A stretch of 32,000 bases of DNA from positions 1,050,001 through 1,082,000 of the forward strand of contig NZ_LNTB01000001.1 of the NCBI RefSeq assembly GCF_001462395.1, given 5' to 3'. Both the position numbers and the translations under genes were made by a program. The stretch is from Pyrodictium occultum. Its GTDB lineage: Archaea; Thermoproteota; Thermoprotei_A; Sulfolobales; Pyrodictiaceae. The notes beneath the pieces were generated by a model. It worked only from the letters and a program-made list of their open reading frames with translations. It was not told where the DNA came from and did not search any database. Each line of letters opens with the position of its first letter. The first letter of the stretch is position 1. This document shows, piece after piece, positions 2,082-32,000 of this stretch.

Positions 2082-3299
2082 TTGCCCCGGAGGCCCCAAC
2101 TATATGTCGCGGATCCAAGGGATATACGTGAAGGCCGTGTGACCGACATCTACTTCACGCGGACAAAGAGGATCCTGGAGGCTAAGGGTCTCTGCGACAC
2201 GCTTGTCAGGGCAGAGTTCCACGCCTACAGCCTCCCTAAGGGCTATGAATGGGCGGTGCTGGCTGGGCTCGAGGAGGCACTTGCCATACTTGAAGGCAGG
2301 AATGTGGACGTCTACGCCATGAGGGAGGGTACGCTCTTCAAGCCCGTAGAGCCCATTATGGTTGTTGAAGGCCCCTACTGCGAGTTCGCAGAGCTGGAGA
2401 CCGCTATACTAGGCGTTCTTAGGCACGAGTCTAGTGTAGCCACCAAGGCTGCCAGGCTCCGGCTGGCTGCGGGGGACAAGGCTCTACTCTTCTTCGGCCT
2501 GCGCTCCGCACACCCGGCTCTGGCTCCAATGCTTGATAGAGCCGCCTACATAGGCGGCTGTGACGCAGTATCTGGAACCATATCGCGCGAGATGCTCGGC
2601 CTAGAGCCTAAGGGAACCATGCCCCATGCACTCATCATAGTCTTCGGGGACCCTGTAAAGGCCTGGAAGGCTTTTGACGAGATCGTTGAGCCCGAGGTGC
2701 CCAGGATAGCTCTAGTCGACACATTCTACGATGAGAGGTATGAGGCACTGCTAGCAGCTAAGACTCTCGGAGATAAGTTGTTCGGCGTGAGGCTTGACAC
2801 GCCGAGCAGCAGGAGGGGCAACATGCGGCGTATCGTTGAGGAGGTGCGCTGGACGCTCAATCTACATGGCTACAACAATGTTAAAATAATCGTCAGCGGT
2901 GGCCTCGATGAAAACGATATAATAGAGCTTAGGGATGTAGCCGACGGCTTCGGCGTAGGCACCTCAATAGCCTTCCCGCCCAGCATAGATATAAGCATGG
3001 ACATTGTAGAGGTTAAGAGGGGCGACAAGTGGGTACCCATAACGAAACGCGGTAAGCTACCTGGAATGAAGCAGGTATACCGCTGCAAGCCGCTCAATGA
3101 TACCATAGTGCCCTGGGGGCAGAAGCCGGAGAAAAACTGCGGCGATGGCTCTGAGCCTAAACCGCTCCTAGAGAAGATCATGGAGAAAGGCGAGCTGCTG
3201 ACAGAGGTACCGAGCCTTGATGAGATAAGGAACTATGTACTATCGCAGCTTAAGGAGCTGGGCGAGAGCTATACCAGCCCTAGCACCAAGCAGCATTAG
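2082..3299 (+). CDS. nicotinate phosphoribosyltransferase (archaeal type II PRTase)
   Basis: 405 aa with a TTG start 5 nt after the preceding stop. N-terminus is ..[15 protein letters not shown]. Other features are the GTMPHALI motif, [17 protein letters not shown] and SGGLDE. Length and motif order match archaeal NAPRTases. Confidence 0.8.
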
Positions 3300-5405
3300 G
3301 GCCCTAATTGCGTCCAGCCTGTGCTCCCTCACGAACCCATATCCTATATTAATGACCTTGCATGCACCGTTACCGCTATCAAGCAATCTCTCTATATCGA
3401 TGACAACTGTACCGCTGTTGAGTGGTTTACCATAGCATAGCACTATGCACTCATAGCTGCATCCTAGATACATGCGCTTCCTATCTAGGAGGCCTACGTT
3501 TACCTTACTCTCGGTAGGCCCAAAGAGCCTTAGGTTCCTCACGCCCCTAGCGTCTCTCAGTGTAAGCTCCACCGGCCCCCCAGGTACACGCAGAGGGAGT
3601 CTAGGCCCCGCTTCAACAACCACATCCAATCCATTAACTCTGGCTGCAAGGTAGCCAGGCCTGCTAAGCTCCATCACTATATACAAGCGGCCCCTTCTAA
3701 TATCTATGTCGAACCTCTCTATGGATCCTAGTACATCCTCCAATGGCTTGACAAGCCGCGCTTCCGTCTTGAGCAATATGCCGTTGTCGTTTACACCAAC
3801 TACTCCTATATTATCACTGTTGACTAGATCCTCCACCGGGACCAAGGCGCTGTAGAGCCTGGCATGTTTCTGTGCAGACTTTACTCTAGCCTTTACAAAC
3901 CGGGGAAGCACTAGCAGCTTGTAGAGCTCCATGTTAGTATCAACCCTAAACACAACCTCGACAATGTCTAGACCGCGTGGAACAACCTCCATCACTGTAA
4001 CTTCTAGGGATAACTGGTGCTCACGTATTCTCTCGATCTCTGCCAGGGCTCCAGTGGCGTTTTCCCGCAGAGCAATCCTGGAAGCGTTTGGCCTAAACCC
4101 GAGCACATAGACTACATGAAATAAATTATTGTCCTCATGGAGCGTTAGTGGCTCTACCCTATTGTCTCCCACCAGCAGCTCTATGCTCTCTACACTATCT
4201 ATTCCCACTAGTTTGCCCCAAGCCTCGAGTATTGATTGCCCGCAATAATTCTCTCTTAGGCAGAGAGTTCCGCTATTAGTTGTCCATAACCTCGCTCCCT
4301 CAAGCCTAATCTCAGCATCAACCAATTTACCAAAGATCTCACTCTCCATTATAGAAACTAGGTTGTTGACGCCGCTCTCTCCCAGCTTTCCTGCACCCAC
4401 AGCCCTGCTAAGCCGCCGTGAGCTGGGGGAAACCTCAAACAGTATTGACGAGACCCTACCCAGCTCTATAATAGAGACCTCATTATCCCTCGTTACGACC
4501 ACGTAGGGAAACACGACAACAGCATTATGGAGAGCCAGCGCCCTCTTGACGAGATTCAGCGCGTATGATGCTAGAGCGCTAGATCCGCCTATTATACGCC
4601 CATCACAGTCAAGTATGCTGTACCCCTCATAGGAGGGTATGGGGGAGGCATCTCGGCAGCGCACGAGCGGCTTTATGCCGCCCAGCTTATCCACAAGATA
4701 TACAACATTATCGTTAGTATTGTAGAGGAGCACATCACCATCCATGCTGTAGCCTAGGGGCTCTAAGCTGCGCTCCACCGAGGGCACGTCGACAAAGCCT
4801 GCCGCGGGATTTACGAGGCGCACATAATCCTGGAAGAATAACGCTACCACGCCATTCCTATATTTCACGAGGCCCGGTTTCTCGCCTATTCTCAAATGCA
4901 TAAACGAGCTAAGTGTGTCGAGTATGAGGAGGTACTCGCCCGCACGCTTATAGAGCACAAAGCTTGATACTAGATCAGATCCCTGGGTCACAACGTTGGC
5001 CTTGCTTATGCTATCCCATCTTTTACATCCGCTTGCACGGAAGAGGACCAGGAGATTTTGACTAAAGAGTCCTCTACGCTCATATATTATGGCGTGAGGG
5101 CCCTCCGCTATAACTTTAGACTCGCTATCGCCCGGCCTACAGCCACTAAAGCTATCTCCAATGGAAACTGTCTGCCCATCTATTAGGGGGACCAGCACGC
5201 TGTCATTGTTATTGCAGCTTAGTTTGAGGAGCCTCTCGTTGCCGCCTACAACTACTAGCCTCTGTGGAATACACCGCTGCAGGTTATCAAAGCTGTTATG
5301 CTGCCCTCCAATGGATATGCTCCTAATGGCAAAGGGCATAACCAGCATGTAGTATCTTCTAGTGTCCATAGACCCCTGGTTTCTCGCGTAGCCCTGGCCG
5401 GTCAC
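3240..5405 (-). CDS. large hypothetical protein (721 aa), no recognisable motif
   Basis: Long uninterrupted ORF on the minus strand with coding-like composition. It is visibly less GC-rich than its neighbours. Its 3' end overlaps the convergent NAPRTase gene by 60 nt. The start is uncertain, with internal Met codons near the N-terminus. Confidence 0.55.
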
Positions 5406-8867: not shown

Positions 8868-8979
8868 GCCGCCGTAGCTCAGCGGTAGAGCACCGGCCTC
8901 GTAAGCCCCGCTGGGGTCCAGGAGCCGCGGGTTCCGAGGGAGCCGGGGGTCCCGGGTTCGAATCCCGGCGGCGGCTCCA
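8868..8979 (+). tRNA. tRNA-Thr (anticodon CGT) with a 37-nt intron at the canonical 37/38 position, CCA encoded
   Basis: Structure is GCCGCCG-TA-GCTC-AGCGGTA-GAGC-A-CCGGC-CT[CGT]A // intron 8904-8940 // A-GCCGG-GGGTC-CCGGG-TTCGAAT-CCCGG-CGGCGGC-T-CCA. All four stems are fully paired. Confidence 0.85.
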
Positions 8980-9143
8980 GTCGCGGGCCTTCCCCAACCC
9001 ACCATCCGGCTCCATACCCTCATGTTCATGTCCCTCCTTAATTTTCCTAACACTTTATTGATAATTCGCTAACCTAGGATAATAACGTTTATAATGTATA
9101 TCCGTTACTATGTTCTCCTCCCCTCTTTTCATGGGATGATGTA

Positions 9144-9451
9144 ATGGTTAGGAAGGTTAGGGTTTTAGCTGTTGAGGATAGGTCTTGGTGGATGCAGCCT
9201 CTCTTCAGCTTCCCGTTTATTGGAGGCCTGAGCGCTAGGCAGTTGCTAATCATTGTTTCATCATTATATCAGCATCACTATCGATAGGTGGCGGGTTGAG
9301 GTTTGGGGAAGTAGCTGTTATCGTGCTTGTATCAGGCTTCGTAGGTCTGGGTATTGCGAAAAAGCCTGTTAAATCAGTGCTTCCCGAGAAACAGTTTCTA
9401 GTGTTTCTTACAGGCAGGCATAGGCCTAGGATTAGCCGAGGAGCTGGCTAA
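9144..9451 (+). pseudogene. PrgI/VirB3-like small membrane protein, split by one frameshift
   Basis: Frame A (9144-9287) reads MVRKVRVLAVEDRSWWMQPLFSFPFIGGLSARQLLIIVSSLYQHHYR*. Frame B (open from 9239, stop 9449-9451) reads ..ASLSIGGGLRFGEVAVIVLVSGFVGLGIAKKPVKSVLPEKQFLVFLTGRHRPR... Joined, they give about 100 aa with the F.GL(S/T).RQL motif plus two TM helices typical of PrgI-family proteins encoded upstream of VirB4. Confidence 0.4.
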
Positions 9452-9591
9452 TGTGTGGGAGGTTACAGGACTAGATCTGGGGTCTAGGAAGCCTATACCA
9501 TTAAGTTACATAGAAGTATTCAAATGGGATCCCTTCACAGACACATTCTCTCCCAGCACTCCCGAAGAAGTATTGGAGAAAAGCCACAGGC

Positions 9592-9906
9592 TTAAACAAA
9601 TAGCTGAGGCAAACGGTTTAACTCGGAAAGAGTTGCTTGAGCCATTATTGCTCCTGCCAAGATTATTAGCCCAAGCCTCTTCTTAGCCCTAGCCTGTTCT
9701 TCTGGTGTATCCGCTGTGGCAAGCTGGATCCCGGTGCAGATCATTCCGCCTATTAAAACTGCTATGCCTAGATACTGCAGGAGCCCTAGGATCTTGTCAA
9801 CCATTGTAACAAGCTCCTCAGGCGGCTGAGTCTCATCCTGAGCATACACTATACTAGGCAGAATCACAGATAGCCATACCGGAAAAAGCTTGGCAATAGC
9901 GCGCAT
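9592..9906 (-). CDS. VirB2/TrbC-like (CedA1/TedC-like) conjugative-type pilin candidate
   Basis: 104 aa. It has a signal peptide (MRAIAKLFPVWLSVILPSIVYA/QD), then two hydrophobic helices (LGLLQYLGIAVLIGGMICTGI and LGLIILAGAIMAQA) joined by a charged loop (ADTPEEQARAKKR). An A/T-rich box (ggtaaattaaac, 9925-9936) lies about 25 nt upstream of the ATG, suggesting a leaderless transcript. Confidence 0.5.
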   Translation of the reverse strand: MRAIAKLFPVWLSVILPSIVYAQDETQPPEELVTMVDKILGLLQYLGIAVLIGGMICTGIQLATADTPEEQARAKKRLGLIILAGAIMAQATLSELNRLPQLFV

Positions 9907-10078
9907 CCGCCTGCTAAACCCGGTAAATTAAACACATATCTAACACCACAAAGAAACACGTGGTAAAACATAGTTACATATAAATGAAGAAGCGTTTATC
10001 TTTCTTAGAAAGTTATCTGGGCTCTTTGATGAGTAGAGGTTTACATTTTAAAACGAGCAATTGGCTGGGATTGTGTTT

Positions 10079-10729
10079 TCATATGCGTCTATACTTGAGT
10101 GTATCTAGTAGAAGTTTGAGTATGAATGTTGCCAGTCCTATAAGTGATTCTACTTGATATAGTGTTAGTGCTGGACCGGGTGCTAGATGGGGTTGTGTGG
10201 GTTCAGGGCCTCTTGTTGAAATTGTCTTGACATTGGTAAAAACTTCTGTCACGAGCTTAGCTAATAGCTCGTTTCCTTGGAATAGTTCTTTAAGCTTTTC
10301 CTTAACTAGCATGCATCCTCCATTTTGGCTCCTAGTAGCGAGTTTTAAGGGTTCCAACGCATAGCAGGCTTCTATGAGGGCATTCCTAAGAGCTGTTAAT
10401 GGTGGTCCAATACTAAGAGTCTCATATATAGCCTCTCTAGCTCGCTTTAGCGACTTAATAGCATTAATAAAGCGCTGTAAGGACTCCTCCGGCTCTGGTA
10501 ATGGCCCTGGTAATGGGAGCTCTAGCAATACATAGTTTCCAAGTCCTAGTGCGGGGGCAAAATCTCTAACCCATCTAGGACCCTCAATTGTAATAGGTGT
10601 CTCATATTCGCTATATACAGTATTGTTTATACCCAGTAATTTTAATTTGTTTATACCCAGTAATGGTTTTCCGGCTTTTAACATTACAGCATCATTTGGG
10701 AGCCCGGCTAAACGAAAATCCTTTCCCAC
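10079..10729 (-). CDS. hypothetical protein (216 aa), distal gene of a two-gene operon
   Basis: GTG start 4 nt after the stop of the upstream 143-aa gene. The C-terminal half is helix-rich and ends in a hydrophobic segment (LIGLATFILKLLLDTL). It contains an in-frame 24-bp tandem duplication (LLGINKLK/LLGINN). No known motif was recognised. Confidence 0.55.
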   Translation of the reverse strand: MGKDFRLAGLPNDAVMLKAGKPLLGINKLKLLGINNTVYSEYETPITIEGPRWVRDFAPALGLGNYVLLELPLPGPLPEPEESLQRFINAIKSLKRAREAIYETLSIGPPLTALRNALIEACYALEPLKLATRSQNGGCMLVKEKLKELFQGNELLAKLVTEVFTNVKTISTRGPEPTQPHLAPGPALTLYQVESLIGLATFILKLLLDTLKYRRI

Positions 10730-10733
10730 CCTA

Positions 10734-11165
10734 TTATATGTCGTCTGGATGATGAACCGTACTGTAAAGTACTATAAATCTTATTTTAAGCTTCAATTCA
10801 ACTCTATGATACTTGTTTATTCTCCTCCTCTCCTCAATATAGTTTATAGATTTAGGATCTAGTAATGCTTTGCCTCCGAGGATCAGAGTATGCTTGAGAT
10901 CTCTGGGATACTTCTCCCCGTAATCTACTATTATTTGTGGAGGAAATGATGTACCGCTGAATGAAACCTTGTCAAGAATGATTCGTGTCAGAAATTTTTC
11001 ATCATCAGAATATAGTGCGCCATCTACTGGAATATAAATCCCTCTACCAGCATCAAATCCTTCAACACGGACATTAAACATGAGGCATGGAGCTATTGTG
11101 TCTCTGCAGGGTTCCACGTTGGTAGAGGTAATCTTAGGTGATTCCAACTCCATCGCCCACTGCAT
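10734..11165 (-). CDS. hypothetical protein (143 aa), proximal gene of a two-gene operon
   Basis: ATG at 11165. An A/T-rich TATA-like stretch (11188-11202) and an 18-bp perfect palindrome lie immediately upstream. The sequence looks beta-rich, with no known motif recognised. Confidence 0.55.
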   Translation of the reverse strand: MQWAMELESPKITSTNVEPCRDTIAPCLMFNVRVEGFDAGRGIYIPVDGALYSDDEKFLTRIILDKVSFSGTSFPPQIIVDYGEKYPRDLKHTLILGGKALLDPKSINYIEERRRINKYHRVELKLKIRFIVLYSTVHHPDDI

Positions 11166-11169
11166 TTTA

Positions 11170-11187
11170 GGGGAACCCCGGTTCCCC
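11170..11187. promoter_or_regulatory. perfect 8-2-8 palindrome (GGGGAACC cc GGTTCCCC), operator-like
   Basis: It sits between the TATA-like stretch and the ATG (11165) of the minus-strand operon. A repressor bound here would block initiation. Confidence 0.45.
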
Positions 11188-11404
11188 TATTATTTTTATT
11201 TGCAGGGGCTGAAATAGCACGAAAGCCCCCGACCATCCTCACCACAAATTTGTGGCTCAACTGTTTAGGGGGCTCCAACGCATCTTGAACCCCCAACCAA
11301 AGGAAACCCTCTCTATACTCCTTATTGTTTAGGGGAGGCTTCACAGCTCCTCCCAGCCCCCTTAGGAAGGCTGAGAACCGGGGAGTTCTCATCTATGATA
11401 CAAG

Positions 11405-11422
11405 TCTCCATGAGCATGGAGA
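11405..11422. repeat. second perfect 8-2-8 palindrome (TCTCCATG ag CATGGAGA)
   Basis: It has the same geometry as 11170-11187 but a different sequence, and lies in the same 415-bp divergent intergenic region. A further 6-bp inverted repeat, GAGAAC..GTTCTC, is at 11373-11390. Confidence 0.4.
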
Positions 11423-11580
11423 AGGCGAGTAGTTTCCTCCCCAACTATAAGGCTCTCTAAGACTATTCCGCTATGGGATTATGGAAGAAGCTGGTAGTAT
11501 ATATTGCTTAGAGACATTATTCTGGCTGGTTTTATAAAGTATTACCACTATATTCTCTCATAGGAGGTGATATAGTGTTT

Positions 11581-11736
11581 ATGCCTATATTATCCGTTAC
11601 ACGTATCGGTAAATACTATAGAACCACTGTTCCACGTGAAGTAAGGAAGCTTCTAGACCTTCATGAGAATGATGAAATAGAATGGGTTTTCGAAGAAGGA
11701 AGAATAGTTGTTGGGAAGGCTGGGAGCCATGGTTAA
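11581..11736 (+). CDS. AbrB/SpoVT(MazE/VapB-like) swapped-hairpin DNA-binding protein
   Basis: 51 aa, MPILSVTRIGKYYRTTVPREVRKLLDLHENDEIEWVFEEGRIVVGKAGSHG. The core (..TVP.EVRK.L.L...D.I.W....G.IV) is classic AbrB/SpoVT. A strong Shine-Dalgarno sequence, GGAGGTGAT, lies 9 nt upstream. Confidence 0.75.
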   Translation: MPILSVTRIGKYYRTTVPREVRKLLDLHENDEIEWVFEEGRIVVGKAGSHG

Positions 11737-11950
11737 ATGCCCATACTGTGGATACGAAGTAGACATCTCCAAGTTTAAACTGTTAAAAGAGCCGCGGAGG
11801 TTTAGATTTTACACGGTTAGAATACTTGAATGCCCCAAATGCCGTAGCGAATTCAACTACTACTATGGCATAAGCCCTCATGGTAAAGTATCAGAGTTTA
11901 CTACTCTATTAGAATATGTCCTAGGCGGAGAAAAAGTTATAAAAATATAA
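11729..11950 (+). CDS. small zinc-ribbon protein (CPYC...CPKC)
   Basis: 73 aa starting MVKCPYCGYEV. Its ATG overlaps the AbrB-like gene stop by 8 nt (ATGGTTAA), implying translational coupling. Two CxxC pairs are 32 residues apart. Confidence 0.6.
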   Translation: MVKCPYCGYEVDISKFKLLKEPRRFRFYTVRILECPKCRSEFNYYYGISPHGKVSEFTTLLEYVLGGEKVIKI

Positions 11951-12091
11951 AAGCATTGTAGGTGACTTGTGTGAGCAGGGAGGGGGAGATCAGGTTTGCT
12001 CCTGATCTATGGTATAAGTTGAAGAATTATCTTCAAAGCTATATAATATTTATTACATTCTTATTAAGAACAAATTAACAGGGGATCTAAA

Positions 12092-13009
12092 ATGAGCTGG
12101 ATCCTAAGGTGGGCATTTGACAAGTCTACGTACTCGCCAGGAGACACAGCTACTGTGAGCTTCTGGGTTGAAAATACTGGCGATAATTATCTATATTTTA
12201 GTGATTTTGAAATAGAGTTCGACTTCGGAAAATACAGGATCAATACTGTGGCAGGAGCTATTCCCCCTAGGAGCAATATGTACTTGGGTACCGCGAGAAT
12301 ATTGTTGCCTAAAAATGTTGTTGGCAGAAAAATATTTCTAATAAGGCACCGTGTCTACGAGTACTTTAGCAATACATGGGTTGATAGAGGTATTGTGGAG
12401 TATGAGAGGAGGTATTTCTTAAGTATATATCCGCAGCCATTATACAGGGTATTCGTCTCTAGAGGCTTGCGTACTGAGGATAGAGTTATTGGCGATCCCA
12501 TAGTGGAAATGATAAAGGAGTGGGGATTCGAAACGGTTACAATAGGCGTAGAAGTAAAGGTTAGAGAGGAGGAAGTTCCTCAGGCGGTAAGAAGAGAAAT
12601 AGCGAGATCCGATGCTGTAATAGCAATAGCGACACCAAGGCATCTTGATGCTTTGACAGGGCTCTGGAGAACACTAGAGTGGCTCTATAGTGAGACAGGA
12701 ATAGCCTACGGTTTGAATAAACCCATGCTAATAATTAAGGATGAAAGAGTATCATTGGGAGGACTACCTTCCTACCTGACAAGATATGGAAATGCGCCAA
12801 TAATAGAATTTAACCCCTATAAACTCGATGAACTAAGAACAAAATTAGCCACAATAATGCCCGGCTTCAGGGAGTGGATTGAGACAAAAAGACGTCTAGA
12901 ATTCTTTGAAGCCTTAAAGAAGCTGGCAATGTTTGGACTGGCCATGGTGGGAGCTATTCATATCCTGCCAGGTATTGTCGGAGCTCTCATAGGACATTCA
13001 AAGAAATAA
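12092..13009 (+). CDS. tail-anchored protein: N-terminal CARDB/Ig-like beta-sandwich + TIR/nucleoside-2-deoxyribosyltransferase-like domain + C-terminal TM helix
   Basis: 305 aa. Residues 1-115 (STYSPGDTATVSFWVENTGDNYLYF...) resemble a CARDB-like sandwich. Residues 119-245 alternate beta and alpha (VFVSRG / ETVTIG / VRREIARSDAVIAIATPR / WLYSETGIAYGLNKPMLIIKDE), as in TIR-like (DUF1863) and deoxyribosyltransferase-like folds, with a conserved Glu (E201, 12692-12694). Residues 278-301 (LAMFGLAMVGAIHILPGIVGALIG) form a TM helix. There is no N-terminal signal peptide. The gene has its own A/T-rich promoter region and a T7 terminator. Confidence 0.6.
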   Translation: MSWILRWAFDKSTYSPGDTATVSFWVENTGDNYLYFSDFEIEFDFGKYRINTVAGAIPPRSNMYLGTARILLPKNVVGRKIFLIRHRVYEYFSNTWVDRGIVEYERRYFLSIYPQPLYRVFVSRGLRTEDRVIGDPIVEMIKEWGFETVTIGVEVKVREEEVPQAVRREIARSDAVIAIATPRHLDALTGLWRTLEWLYSETGIAYGLNKPMLIIKDERVSLGGLPSYLTRYGNAPIIEFNPYKLDELRTKLATIMPGFREWIETKRRLEFFEALKKLAMFGLAMVGAIHILPGIVGALIGHSKK

Positions 13010-13031
13010 AATGGTCTGAAAAATAACTTAC

Positions 13032-13038
13032 TTTTTTT
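13032..13038 (+). terminator. T7 run, archaeal oligo-T terminator after 12092..13009
   Basis: cTTTTTTTa lies 23 nt downstream of the stop codon. Confidence 0.5.
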
Positions 13039-13238
13039 ATCCTAGAAGAAACCTTTAGAACTGACAGCTCCTATCATAAAAGAAGGATGAAGGTCTCGTA
13101 ACTAAATAGCTCTACATATTCAATAGGCCCTTCTTGTGGCTTCATGAAGTGTTCTAAAAATATAATTTGAGTTGAAAGATTTTATGGGATTAATCAGCAT
13201 CCGTAACTATATTCCTACATACTATGCGTTATTAGGTG

Positions 13239-13690
13239 ATGGCTTTGATCAAACTAAAACGCCTTGAGGAAGTAGTGTATCTGGGTTTATTCAATAATAA
13301 AGCATATGGTATCTATAAGGACGATAGGTGCATATTGCTATATTTGGTGAGTCTGGTACTGGTAAGTCTACATTGTTGAAGTTTCTGATAAAGCAACACA
13401 TTGATCTCGGCGAGGGCTTCACTCTTCTCGACCCTCATGGAGACCTTGCACTTGAGATTGTCATGCTTATACCTGAGGACAAGATTGATAGGCTTGTATA
13501 CATTGACCCTGTAACAGCCAGCGTGTATGGCAGTACTGTTAGGATTAATTTCCTCGAGTACCGCGATGTGCAGGAGTTGGAGCGTGTTGGTGAATCGTTT
13601 ATATCAGCCCTTCAAAAATTATTCTAGGGATTTCTGGGGTCCCCGTCTCGAGCACATACTTAGGAACTGTGTGTACACTATTCTAGAGCA
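13239..13690 (+). pseudogene. VirD4/TraG/HerA-like P-loop NTPase, N-terminal fragment with two frame breaks and 3' truncation
   Basis: Three frames are needed. The first is MALIKLKRLEEVVYLGLFNNKAYGIYKDDR (from ATG 13239). A shift near 13325 leads to HIAIFGESGTGKSTLLKFLI..LLDPHGDL...RINFLEY...FISALQKLF* (Walker A). A shift near 13620 leads to SRDFWGPRLEHILRNCVYTILEQ. Homology-like sequence stops where composition turns GC-rich, near 13690. Walker B and the rest of the ATPase are absent. Confidence 0.6.
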
Positions 13691-13928
13691 GCCTCCCGGC
13701 TCAACGCCCCTTCTCCCCCAGCCTCTCCAGGGCCCCCGGGAGCCCGCTCTCCTCATTGAAGGATGGGGTGCAGGGGCTCAGCTACCCCAGGGTAGCTGGC
13801 GTCATCCCTAGCGCTCGGCAGGCATGACTCTCGTCACAGCCCCGGAGCGCCGGGAGCCTGGGGGCCTCCGAAATCCCCTTCTCCCCAGAGCCTCGGCTAG
13901 GGCCCGAGCCCTGCCTACCCGGGGTGAC

Positions 13929-29455: not shown

Positions 29456-30186
29456 CCCCCCGGGTGGCGGTGATAAGCTTCGATGTGGAGCAGGACTGTC
29501 CGCCCTACCTGGACTCGGCCCGTGGCGTGGAGGAGGGGCTTCCGAGGATACTCGAGCTGCTGGCCGAGGAGAGGGTCCGGGCCACATTCTTCTTCACTGC
29601 AGAGATGGCTAGGAGGTTCCCGCGGCTAGCCCGGAGGGTTGTGGACGAGGGCCACGAGCTGGGCTCCCACGGCTACCGCCATGAGAGGCTAGACCGGCTG
29701 CCCCGCAGCGAGGCTGCGAGAGTGCTCGAGAGGTCCACTAGCATCCTCCGCGGCTACGGCGAGGTGAAGGTGTTCCGGGCCCCCAACCTGAAGCTGCCGG
29801 AGAACCTGCTGCCGGTACTGGCCAAGCTCGGCTACCGGGTGGACTCCTCCACGGCTAGGTATAAGCCGCCCTTCCCCCGGCGCGTCGAGAAGCACGGGCC
29901 GCTGGTGCGTGTACCGGTGTCGGTAACCTCCTCTGTGCTCCGGCTCCCCTGGAGGCTCCAGCGCCCCCTGCATGGGGCGCTTGCCCCGCCGCGCGTGTAC
30001 TTCTCCCATCCCTGGGAGTACGTGGATATGTCAAGGGAGCCGGTTAGGCTGGACTGTAGATTCAACACTGGGGAGCCGGCGCTCGAGCTTCTACGGCGCC
30101 TCATACGCTTCCTCCGCGGCGAGGGCTACATGCTGGCGACGCTGTGCGAGGCTGTACGCATGCTCGGCCACGATGTGGAGTGCTAG
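29452..30186 (+). CDS. polysaccharide deacetylase (CE4 / NodB-homology)
   Basis: It has ISFDVEQD (Asp-Asp-type motif 1), TFFFTAEMA and HELGSHGYRHE (His-His motif). ATG 29452 overlaps the GT4 stop (ATGA), and GTG 29440 is the alternative. Confidence 0.85.
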   Translation: MTPRVAVISFDVEQDCPPYLDSARGVEEGLPRILELLAEERVRATFFFTAEMARRFPRLARRVVDEGHELGSHGYRHERLDRLPRSEAARVLERSTSILRGYGEVKVFRAPNLKLPENLLPVLAKLGYRVDSSTARYKPPFPRRVEKHGPLVRVPVSVTSSVLRLPWRLQRPLHGALAPPRVYFSHPWEYVDMSREPVRLDCRFNTGEPALELLRRLIRFLRGEGYMLATLCEAVRMLGHDVEC

Positions 30187-30231
30187 CCGGCCCTCCTCTC
30201 GACGAGGCTCCGCACCGCCTCGGGAGAGCAC

Positions 30232-30780
30232 TAGAATTCCTTGAGGACTTGAGGAGAGCCATAGGGTTCTACTACACTGTTTACAGGGTTATGCTTGAAT
30301 CAGGTGCTAGGTATACCCATGTCCTAAGAATGATCAAGGAATGGAATCCTAGTGAGATTATTGAGATACCTGGTGTAGACATAGTATACCAGAGACTAGT
30401 ATGCTTTGGGGACAGGGGTTTCTGTAGATATTGTAGATACTACATGGGGGTACGTGGATCAACTAAGCAGTGTAAGCGGATATACTTCTCCCATAAGACC
30501 CTGGAATTATTAGAGCAGATTACTCCTAGGAGTATAAGCAGGCATCAGCCTAGAAAATATGCTGAGAAACACGGCTTAATCCTACCAAAGTTATATGAGG
30601 AAGATTGCTTGGAGACTAATGACCAAGGCTATGAACAGGGAGGTAGCAAAATTCATACAATCAAGGTTCGGGGAGCTAAGGGTAAGCGAGGCAAGATACG
30701 AAGACCTACTAGAAGAAGCAGATCAAGCATACCCAGAATACCTAAAGCATCTGGTTAAAATAGGTCTTACCGACTACTAA
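30232..30780 (+). pseudogene. tyrosine recombinase, SSV-type integrase C-terminal (catalytic) part, frameshifted
   Basis: Frame 1 reads LEFLEDLRRAIGFYYTVYRVMLESGARYTHVLRM (box I Arg)...IYFSHKTLELL...KYAEKHGLILPKLY. A shift near 30590-30596 leads to MRKIAWRLMTKAMNREVAKFIQSRFGELRVSEARYEDL (RK..., catalytic Tyr in ARY). No N-terminal domain is present, and the AT-rich homology begins exactly at the composition boundary. Confidence 0.6.
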
Positions 30781-30865
30781 TGTGAGTAAATAAAGAAATG
30801 AAAGAATTGGTCTTACATCACTCCCTCATTCCTATAACCTGTCACGATGAAGTCACCAGGTCTTC

Positions 30866-31981
30866 TTAACTGTTGATTAAGTTTTCCAGAAGCTCAGTGA
30901 TTGGTATAATTTTTCTTGAACCAAAATCTACTCCGAAAAACTCTATCTTATCCCCATATCTCTTCCTGTAGATGTTTCTGAGAGCAAGTATATCCTTAAA
31001 ATATATCATTAACTGGGGGTTTGGTATTATTATCCATAACTTCAAGCCTTTCTTAAGCCTTGATTCTATTCTTCTCCTAAGCTTTAGCATTGGAAGACCT
31101 GTTCCATATAGGGTCTCTATTTCTACTGCTAATTCGCCTAATTCTGAATCTCTTACGTATACATCTAATCTCCCATCAACAAATTCATATTCGGTTCTTA
31201 TATTTTCTTCCCTAACTCCTATCCTCTTAAGATATTCAACAACAAAAGCTTTTAGTGCATAATGGAGGATAGATTCACCACCAATGTTTTCCTCATCCTC
31301 ACTGCTAGGTTCTACGGAAACTATTGTGGTTATTTTGCTTGCAAGTCTTTCTATTTCATCAAAGTACAAATCTTCTAATCTTACAACAGTCGCATCCAAA
31401 TTGAATAATACTGGAGTCTCCTTTCTTACTATACCCCACATGACTTGAGCAAGTTTAAAAACAATATCATCCTCTTTTATATTAACCTCATAGTATTTTG
31501 GAAATGGTGAATCGATCTTAAGAATCTCCTTAACCTTACTAAGCTTCTCCTCACTACCATAAAATACTAGGAAACCAAGGTTTTGAGAATAAAGTTCCTT
31601 AAGCCTATCCTTAAGATATCTTGTCTCAACATCTACTTTGTCTAAATCTAAGACCCAAACATGTTTATCAGCTCTTATGTCTAGTTTAATTTCATCGAAA
31701 TCTATAGCTTCCATGTGTGCTGGTCTTGGCAACCCTTTGCCATGTATTCTATAAATTTCTCTTAGAATTCTCTTTAATAACTCTACGTATTCGAATTTCT
31801 TGTTTTTAGGCTTTCTTGCAAGAATTATTGCTGGCCTATTAATGTTTAGCTTAAATCCCGACCCAAATATAGTTTGTATCGGATCAAGGAATTCTAATTT
31901 CTCCACTTCATCAGAAGGAATAGTAAGACCAGCTGATACCGCAGTCTTTTCAAATAATAAGTCCTTTAGATATCTTTTCAC
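30866..31981 (-). CDS. hypothetical protein with PD-(D/E)xK nuclease-like C-terminal domain
   Basis: 371 aa. The C-terminal GESILHYALKAFVVEYL...GRLDVYVRDSELGELAVEIETLYG fits the E...D...ExE/K restriction-endonuclease-fold core. The N-terminal 230 aa or so has no recognised motif. The gene is AT-rich like the rest of the element. Confidence 0.6.
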   Translation of the reverse strand: MKRYLKDLLFEKTAVSAGLTIPSDEVEKLEFLDPIQTIFGSGFKLNINRPAIILARKPKNKKFEYVELLKRILREIYRIHGKGLPRPAHMEAIDFDEIKLDIRADKHVWVLDLDKVDVETRYLKDRLKELYSQNLGFLVFYGSEEKLSKVKEILKIDSPFPKYYEVNIKEDDIVFKLAQVMWGIVRKETPVLFNLDATVVRLEDLYFDEIERLASKITTIVSVEPSSEDEENIGGESILHYALKAFVVEYLKRIGVREENIRTEYEFVDGRLDVYVRDSELGELAVEIETLYGTGLPMLKLRRRIESRLKKGLKLWIIIPNPQLMIYFKDILALRNIYRKRYGDKIEFFGVDFGSRKIIPITELLENLINS

Positions 31982-32000
31982 AGTAATTGTATCGATTCTA

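Follow-up and report, generated by a model that had tools for sequence, protein, structure and literature searches.

A tail-anchored protein of the TIR superfamily in Pyrodictium occultum is a credible candidate for a single-gene abortive-infection effector

The stretch of DNA considered here, termed the window, comprises 32,000 nucleotides of the Pyrodictium occultum genome (contig NZ_LNTB01000001.1 of assembly GCF_001462395.1, positions 1,050,001 to 1,082,000 of the forward strand). Its gene of interest lies at window positions 12092-13009 and encodes a protein in which a β-sandwich, an α/β domain related to TIR domains and to nucleoside 2-deoxyribosyltransferases (NDTs), and a hydrophobic helix follow one another from the N to the C terminus. 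The gene, its putative expression signals and the parts of its product are as follows; residue-level confidence is given as the predicted local distance difference test (pLDDT) of the AlphaFold2 model.

12040..12053, plus strand: putative archaeal promoter read from the sequence, an A/T element resembling a TATA box (TATATAATATTTAT) that precedes the ATG by about 50 nt
12081..12087, plus strand: GGGGATC, a putative Shine-Dalgarno-like motif read from the sequence, 5-11 nt ahead of the ATG
12092..13009, plus strand: coding sequence of the sandwich-TIR-like-transmembrane protein, 305 residues, stop codon included, from the list of open reading frames (ORFs)
12092..12427, plus strand: N-terminal Ig-like β-sandwich, residues 1-112, pLDDT about 81-93; putative sensor or assembly module
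12443..12886, plus strand: divergent TIR/NDT-superfamily α/β domain, residues 118-265, from the β-α-β topology of the model and from profiles
12692..12694, plus strand: GAG codon specifying E201, predicted to be the catalytic glutamate, within the motif W197-x-x-x-E201 ... K210-P211
12923..12991, plus strand: C-terminal glycine-rich transmembrane helix, residues 278-300, LAMFGLAMVGAIHILPGIVGALI, followed by HSKK; predicted tail anchor, low AlphaFold2 confidence
13032..13038, plus strand: putative archaeal oligo-T terminator, a run of seven T residues 23 nt past the stop codon

The encoded protein is a 100% match to WP_168371300.1, a Pyrodictium occultum "hypothetical protein", and all database annotations of the protein and its homologues are likewise 'hypothetical'. 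Full-length homologues, about 306 residues long, number more than 200 and show 56-76% identity, with E-values down to 1e-156; when 1.84 billion cluster representatives (clusters at 50% identity) were scanned exhaustively with HMMER, the family came to 233 clusters at E<=1e-3, of which 129 reach E<=1e-10. By sequence comparison, the ORF is a genuine gene under selection. The motifs that an earlier, sequence-only reading of the window had quoted all lie where that reading placed them (STYSPGDTATVSFWVENTGDNYLYF, residues 12-36; WLYSE, 197-201; TGIAYG, 202-207; LNKP, 208-211; MLII, 212-215), residue 201 is indeed glutamate, and the TATA-like box and T7 run that it took for an own promoter region and terminator are present as putative signals.

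The AlphaFold2 model of the full-length protein, built on a 47-sequence alignment (pLDDT 77.1, predicted template modelling score 0.72), consists of β-sandwich strands within residues 3-112, an α/β domain spanning residues 118-265 and a C-terminal helix of low confidence. For the sandwich, Foldseek returned TRAP β/δ subunits, Spo0M, the adaptin ear and MG domains, and no Pfam family was matched by the query or by the 47 close and 51 diverse family members examined; the CARDB profile, in particular, gave no match in the query at E<=10 and none among those members. Thus, of the Ig/CARDB-like assignment made in the sequence-only reading, the Ig-like fold is borne out by the model and its structural matches and the CARDB identity is not, and the sandwich is, as modelled, a generic Ig-like fold. 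It evolves faster than the central domain, with a pairwise identity in the diverse set of 19% compared with 32% in the TIR core, and its residue N28 is conserved in at least 90% of members of the 51-sequence alignment.

Hydropathy analysis places the Kyte-Doolittle maximum (2.07, 19-residue window) at residues 278-296 and reveals no N-terminal hydrophobic segment, i.e. no signal peptide, so that the protein is predicted to be tail-anchored with an N-in topology. A hydrophobic tail occurs in 86 of 97 members, with glycine-zipper-like (small-xxx-small-xxx-small) motifs in 74. The three-part organization with a single C-terminal transmembrane helix, as proposed at the outset, is therefore upheld by the model, by hydropathy and by conservation.

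Within the central domain, the predicted strands (residues 118-123, 146-149, 175-180, 212-217 and 237-240) alternate with helices, giving the five-parallel-stranded, flavodoxin-like arrangement common to TIR domains and NDTs; the fold in itself does not separate the two. E201 is the sole invariant column among the 51 diverse members, which extend down to about 23% identity, with F121, T150, R183, W197, K210, P211 and R260 (and N28 of the sandwich) conserved in at least 90% of them. In alignments, E201 pairs with E642 of SARM1, with E104 of DNPH1 and with the glutamate of the W..E motif of a homologue designated P0252. SARM1 E642 and DNPH1 E104 are catalytic residues; the PDB entry 8qhq is the DNPH1 E104Q mutant. 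A glutamate following strand C in a W-x-x-x-E context, as in the enzymatic TIR domains, is thus present, and E201, which had been singled out from the sequence as occupying the catalytic position of TIR NADases or NDTs, is likely the catalytic glutamate. E196 was considered as an alternative but was rejected, since distant members do not conserve it.

As the query itself misses the Pfam thresholds (see below), assignment of the central domain as TIR rests on profiles and on bridging homologues. TIR_2 is the most frequent Pfam match in the family, being found in 40 of the 47 close members (best E 2e-5) and in 14 of the 51 diverse members. Other profiles matched among the close members are Nuc_deoxyrib_tr (28 of 47; the best family member, at 24.9 bits, is below the cutoff), CAP12-PCTIR_TIR (21 of 47; best E 0.0038, sub-threshold) and DUF4062 (10 of 47). 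P0252, which has the same sandwich, α/β and transmembrane build as the query, scores 67.9 bits against TIR_2 (cutoff 28) and also exceeds the ThsB_TIR (30.1 bits) and TIR cutoffs; its W..E motif aligns with W197/E201, and hhalign of the query family against it gives E 7.7e-5. The second bridging homologue, P0243, is a 1023-residue protein combining HNH, TRADD-like N, TIR_2 and GTPase regions, the TIR_2 region of which matches the query domain over 150 residues (BLASTP E 7e-20).

A profile of the central domain made from diverse members (termed A5), built without P0252, was searched against PDB sequences by HMMER. It matched Caenorhabditis elegans TIR-1/SARM1 (E 0.0024), the SIGIRR TIR domain (0.0049), the TIR domain of 8fz9 (0.0072) and the human SARM1 TIR domain; among real PDB proteins its matches are TIR domains only, and no chain of the NDT family appeared at E<=10 in any of the HMMER profile searches of PDB sequences. 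The top-ranking A5 match, 2l69, is a de novo designed Rossmann protein and was dismissed as compositional. Profiles of close members (A1 and A2) returned nothing meaningful from the PDB sequences, and the search of the large database with A5 returned fragments of the same family with no outward bridge. The alignment with TIR-1 is gap-free and sets E201 on the glutamate of DWVHKEL. SARM1 and DNPH1, the sequences of which were validated against PDB chains, were subjected to an identical hhalign test. With the SARM1 TIR domain this gave a probability of 36.5% (E 3.7e-4) over 96 aligned columns and no gap, and with DNPH1 a probability of 31.9% (E 4.9e-4) over 79 aligned columns and a gap of 11 residues. 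Because the individual E-values are modest, the TIR call rests on their convergence.

The central domain is a member of the TIR/NDT superfamily, and the available sequence evidence favours the TIR side, with homology to bona fide TIR domains detectable by profile and through P0243, P0252 and SARM1. We read it as a divergent TIR-branch domain close to the TIR/NDT boundary, with its glutamate at a position that is catalytic in both classes. In this respect the TIR-like/NDT-like flavodoxin domain of the sequence-only reading is retained as to fold, E201 and profile matches, with the reservation that the query lies below the thresholds of TIR_2, ThsB_TIR (DUF1863) and Nuc_deoxyrib_tr.

The genomic surroundings of the homologues were compared at 22 loci. 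An all-against-all BLASTP of the 643 ORFs (at least 35 residues, within 2.5 kb) at these loci revealed no recurrent neighbour, and any given Pfam family is present in at most two of the 72 neighbours; the gene can therefore be taken to stand alone. This is in accord with the absence from the window of an adjacent ThsA, cyclase or other known partner, as had been stated, and none recurs at the 22 loci. Two small ORFs at L003-L005 had prompted the idea of a conserved upstream cassette (AbrB/MazE, zinc ribbon, gene), but these ORFs are unrelated between loci. What lies near the homologues is varied:

L024/L025: type II restriction endonuclease (1.5e-87) and methyltransferase, inserted together with the TIR-like gene between proB and proA
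L028 (Conexivisphaerales): HEC-01A/B, HmaA, TmtA, HepT/MNT and DUF1156
L001 (Baldrarchaeia): PDC-S68 (4.8e-268) and a DUF1156/HmaB-like methylase
L021: AbiEi/AbiEii and an integrase
L022: PIN/MazE
L023: resolvase
L002: DUF87/Zot element, with ATPases flanking the gene

In eight of nine well-flanked independent contexts, defence or mobility genes lie within about 5 kb, by a qualitative tally that carries no background correction; the classes are restriction-modification, HEC-01, Hma, TmtA, PDC-S68, AbiE, toxin-antitoxin, integrase, resolvase and conjugation. The survey of homologues proposed in the sequence-only reading thus yields a variable genomic position, with defence islands or mobile elements in most well-flanked contexts. 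The proB/proA islet is a compact observation in its own right: in two metagenome contigs (L024 10001-12669 and L025 2085-4753) the same three genes are arranged alike, namely the TIR-like gene, a gene for a ThaI-type restriction enzyme and a gene for an N6/N4 methylase.

Archaeal hosts of the family include Thermoproteota, Bathyarchaeia, Nitrososphaera, Archaeoglobi, Hecatellales and Baldrarchaeia, and bacterial hosts, represented by metagenome-assembled genomes, include Dehalococcoidales, Aquifex, Desulfobacteraceae and Elusimicrobia. Occurrence in two domains implies cross-domain horizontal transfer, with the caveat of binning that attaches to metagenome-assembled genomes. Searches of 72,556 plasmid records (PLSDB), 50,697 phage records (INPHARED) and IMG/VR turned up no homologue.

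In the window itself the gene resides in a region of low GC content, the limits and contents of which are:

8980..13700, no strand: low-GC island, a decayed remnant of a conjugative or integrated element next to a tRNA-Leu gene, from composition and gene content
9592-9906, minus strand: gene for a TrbC/VirB2-type pilin of a type IV secretion system
11575-11736: MazE/AbrB-like ORF of 53 residues (E 1.4e-8), upstream of the TIR-like gene
13328-13811, plus strand: frameshifted 5' fragment of a DUF87/HerA-type ATPase gene, truncated (DUF87 ATPase at 13328-13627) and stopping at the host gcvPA gene

The GC content is 0.42 over positions 9000-13700, compared with 0.55 and 0.63 in the left and right flanks, and the gene has the same composition as the island (42% GC), so that the AT-rich setting originally described is confirmed. 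The island begins directly after the tRNA-Leu gene, and the host gcvPA gene starts at 13824. The limits of the tRNA-Leu gene differ between callers: ARAGORN gives 8907-8979 (73 nt, anticodon GAG) and the Rfam tRNA model 8868-8976 (109 nt), which is likely due to a long variable arm or an intron, the 5' part having been missed by ARAGORN. Neither an integrase gene nor att repeats were found on scanning the island, the search for direct repeats giving only weak 18-nt matches that are 72% identical; hence what survives is the decayed remainder of an element that is no longer intact, and its integration boundaries are not definable from such matches. The earlier proposal that the gene is cargo of an integrated element accordingly holds to the extent that the island is of mobile type, with pilin and DUF87 genes, although the element itself is degraded and survives as a fragment. 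The MazE/AbrB-like ORF overlaps an ORF for an 80-residue, four-cysteine zinc ribbon by 29 nt (together 11575-11950), and the two may be a small regulatory or toxin-antitoxin-like pair.

Elsewhere in the window, a second low-GC region (GC 0.34-0.46) occupies about 30100-32000, at the window end. It opens with an ORF at 30144-30758 matching Phage_integr_3, the archaeal SSV-type integrase family (E 8e-7), followed by a 371-residue ORF on the minus strand (30866-31981) that has no Pfam match; it is probably another integrated element, extending beyond the window. A 721-residue ORF on the minus strand at 3240-5405, in a region of host GC content, has no Pfam match at E<=1e-5.

On balance, we consider it probable that the gene constitutes a self-contained, membrane-tethered, single-gene abortive-infection or defence module of the TIR superfamily, carried along with defence islands and mobile elements by horizontal transfer, mostly among archaea; its product is a credible candidate for a membrane-tethered TIR abortive-infection effector. 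The defence function and NADase activity that we infer, and likewise the trigger, substrate, oligomerization and phenotype, would fit together in the following manner. The glycine-rich transmembrane tail would hold the protein at the membrane on the cytoplasmic side, and the faster-evolving Ig-like sandwich would either sense an invader-derived cue or restrain the enzyme in an inactive or monomeric state. Once triggered, the TIR-like domains may self-associate, as in TIR enzymes, enabling the E201 site (W197-x-x-x-E201, K210-P211) to cleave the N-glycosidic bond of NAD+ or of a close nucleotide. The resulting metabolite depletion would arrest or kill the infected cell ahead of the spread of a virus or plasmid, with damage to the membrane by clustered glycine-zipper tails as a possible further effect.

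Several observations weigh against this reading. The query falls below the Pfam gathering thresholds for both Nuc_deoxyrib_tr (15.3 bits, E 0.022, cutoff 28.8) and TIR_2 (13 bits, E 0.15, cutoff 28), and it does not match the Pfam TIR and ThsB_TIR (DUF1863) profiles; it is thus a divergent outlier rather than a canonical Pfam member, the threshold being operational, not biological. PADLOC gave no match to the query and NCBIfam only a weak, spurious one to SecY (19 bits, cutoff 253), dismissed as an artefact of the transmembrane helix. The hhalign probabilities are modest, even for the SARM1 TIR domain (36%). In a Foldseek search with a domain-only model, MilB, DNPH1/Rcl and BcmB make up the whole of the top 15 PDB matches (E 2e-5 to 8e-4, TM-scores 0.55-0.73), and the first TIR domain comes at rank 34; the TLR1 TIR domain was matched at a TM-score of 0.58. 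A search with the full-length model gave a similar result. By the structural ranking, then, the substrate may not be NAD+, and the domain could be a nucleoside monophosphate (NMP) N-glycosidase of the NDT superfamily, resembling DNPH1, MilB or BcmB, that hydrolyses (d)NMPs, possibly modified ones of viral type such as hydroxymethyl-dUMP or hydroxymethyl-CMP, with an effect on the invader through precursor starvation or poisoning of the nucleotide pool. Nuc_deoxyrib_tr being the best Pfam match of the query, and one shared by most close members, is in keeping with such an activity, as is the DNPH1 alignment, in which EDR falls on EDR and E201-x-G-x-A...K-P on E104-L-G-R-A...N-K. Set against this, the closest structural similarity is to NDTs in a model, but membership by sequence profile is lacking: the HMMER searches of PDB sequences recovered several TIR domains and no NDT-family protein, the DNPH1 alignment requires a gap that those with SARM1 and TIR-1 do not, and the bridging homologues score with TIR_2 rather than with NDT. 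Further, the query has SRGLRT where DNPH1 has its phosphate loop, GSIRGG, so that the loop sequences differ; S123 and R124 are conserved in 88% and 86% of members, respectively, and R124 varies in distant members. The Foldseek ranking also calls for caution, as the domain-only model is less confident than the full-length one (pLDDT 68.7 and 77.1, respectively); residues 185-208, which hold the active-site helix, are the least confident part of both models (itself a weakness of the assignment) and have a pLDDT below 50 in the domain-only model. We regard an NMP glycosidase as unlikely.

For a defence gene, the core subfamily, its supposed sensor included, shows uncommonly high conservation (56-76% identity across phyla), some loci are mostly housekeeping in content, and the proximity to defence genes was judged qualitatively. 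Together with the uniformly 'hypothetical' annotations, the conservation and the housekeeping-dominated loci could indicate a membrane-associated protein with neither an immune nor a catalytic role, acting as a scaffold or in housekeeping, the TIR-like fold of which is purely structural. A lone invariant glutamate at the TIR/NDT catalytic position, however, is the signature of an enzyme, and a patchy cross-domain distribution, varying positions and residence in a low-GC island are unlike those of a housekeeping gene, making this explanation very improbable. A further point is that the transmembrane tail is absent in 11 distant members of the 97, all of which keep E201. This bears on the proposal, which we consider improbable, that the protein is a signal generator, producing a cyclic ADP-ribose-like or ADP-ribose-conjugate messenger for an unlinked effector in trans, as in Thoeris, or that its glycine-zipper tail forms a pore on TIR clustering. 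Relatedness of some members to ThsB-type TIR domains, as seen in the P0252 score, the frequency of the glycine-zipper-like motifs and a similar segment (Pfam Gly-zipper_Omp) in the multidomain relative P0243 are consistent with this proposal; but the 22 loci show no recurring candidate receiver close to the gene, be it ThsA, SLOG, Macro or another, an unlinked partner would be unreliable for a horizontally mobile single gene, and the likeness of the tail to P0243 is one of low complexity and not statistically testable. Benefit to the mobile element rather than to the host, i.e. a role as a toxin or addiction module, or as a factor acting at the membrane in conjugation or entry exclusion for archaeal conjugative or integrated elements, might be suggested by the location of the gene between the MazE/AbrB-like gene and the DUF87 ATPase, in an island with a pilin gene, by the DUF87/Zot ATPases on its flanks at L002 and by the adjoining integrase or resolvase genes at L021 and L023. 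Such a role likewise has a low probability in our judgement: the MazE-like and zinc-ribbon ORFs are not conserved beside homologues, implying that there is no cognate antitoxin; tblastn of the window DUF87 fragment showed no similarity to the L002 DUF87 genes; many loci have no conjugation genes; and the plasmid, phage and IMG/VR records searched hold no homologue. On the same ground, i.e. that the upstream MazE/AbrB-like ORF is absent from other loci, assignment as a type II toxin-antitoxin module was rejected.

A bolder version of the defence reading, which we think rather unlikely, is that the protein is the founding member of a hitherto unrecognized, mainly archaeal but cross-domain-mobile class of one-protein immune sensors, in which a sandwich, an N-glycosidase intermediate between TIR and NDT, and a glycine-zipper anchor operate together at the membrane. 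If so, it might attack virus-type (modified) nucleotides rather than NAD+, or couple nucleotide cleavage to pores, mechanisms that to our knowledge have been described for no TIR system, and would represent a living link between the TIR NADases and the DNPH1/MilB-type nucleotide hydrolases. Apart from that possibility, the family offers a compact test case, in both archaea and bacteria, for how a minimal sensor-enzyme-anchor protein could confer immunity. As the domain lies at the TIR/NDT boundary, its substrate and structure would inform on the divergence of both enzyme classes; and since the family is missing from Pfam, PADLOC and NCBIfam, a profile of it would improve the annotation of defence systems in archaeal genomes. 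TIR-based immunity has been characterized in bacteria, plants and animals; for archaea, and hyperthermophiles in particular, we know of no study of a standalone TIR effector.

Comparison with known systems supports a distinct but recognizable type of protein. The TIR-like domains of Thoeris, CBASS and Pycsar are prokaryotic immune domains, and the window family resembles ThsB, CAP12 and PycTIR in its weak CAP12-PCTIR_TIR matches and in having one member above the ThsB_TIR threshold. By contrast with those proteins, which are encoded in operons with ThsA or a cyclase, it is partnerless; the ThsB-ThsA adjacency that defines Thoeris was not observed in the window or at the other loci, and membership of CBASS or Pycsar is not supported, given the lack of an adjacent cyclase and an N-terminal domain that is Ig-like, not SAVED or STING. 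SARM1, a eukaryotic protein, forms ARM-SAM-TIR octamers under the control of NMN and NAD+. With SARM1/TIR-1, which provide the best real profile match in the PDB, the family shares a gap-free alignment through βC/αC and the pattern D/E-W-[VL]-H/Y-x-E, but it has neither ARM nor SAM domains and the similarity is weak (about 17-25% identity). DNPH1, MilB and BcmB, which serve in metabolism or in the biosynthesis of antibiotics, are soluble dimers of small size. They provide the closest solved folds, a topologically equivalent glutamate nucleophile, an E-x-G-x-A...K-P-type motif and an S-R-G...E-D-R stretch after strand 1; they differ in that their alignment needs an 11-residue insertion and shows no HMMER-level similarity, and in that the window protein is sandwich-fused, membrane-anchored and mobile.

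The window protein can be viewed as a minimal, three-part version of what is found in its multidomain relative P0243, with which it has in common the motif W-x-T-x-x-W-I-H-x-E-x-G-[IM]-A-Y-x-x-N-K-P, a GGL...Y segment and a glycine-zipper hydrophobic segment; HNH, TRADD-like N and GTPase regions and a GTPase/HSP70-like neighbour are confined to the larger protein. The P0243 locus (L026 2140-5962, covering P0243 and its neighbour) deserves mention in itself: in P0243 this TIR variant is combined with HNH, TRADD-like N, an MMR_HSR1 GTPase and the glycine-zipper segment, and the following gene has HSP70/dynamin/GTPase matches, so that the pair, judged from domain content, looks like an uncharacterized NTPase-based conflict system in which the variant is reused.

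A literature search found no description of the sandwich-TIR-transmembrane architecture or of an archaeal counterpart. The kind of system is nonetheless already established in Escherichia coli, where single-protein TIR systems, one with a transmembrane segment, are protective and require the TIR active site (PMC11350192); for these TIR-II/V/VI/IX-type systems an abortive-infection outcome has been proposed (Wang et al., Nat Commun 2024; PMC11350192). The view that the architecture was undescribed thus stands for the window family, but not for single-protein TIR defence as such. The family, known from its sequences and mainly archaeal, has no detectable sequence relationship to the E. coli proteins and differs from them in its Ig-like sandwich, tail anchor and divergent TIR domain. 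What the two have in common is a single TIR-type protein that carries a catalytic residue, is sometimes equipped with a transmembrane segment, and is encoded without a partner in variable defence contexts.

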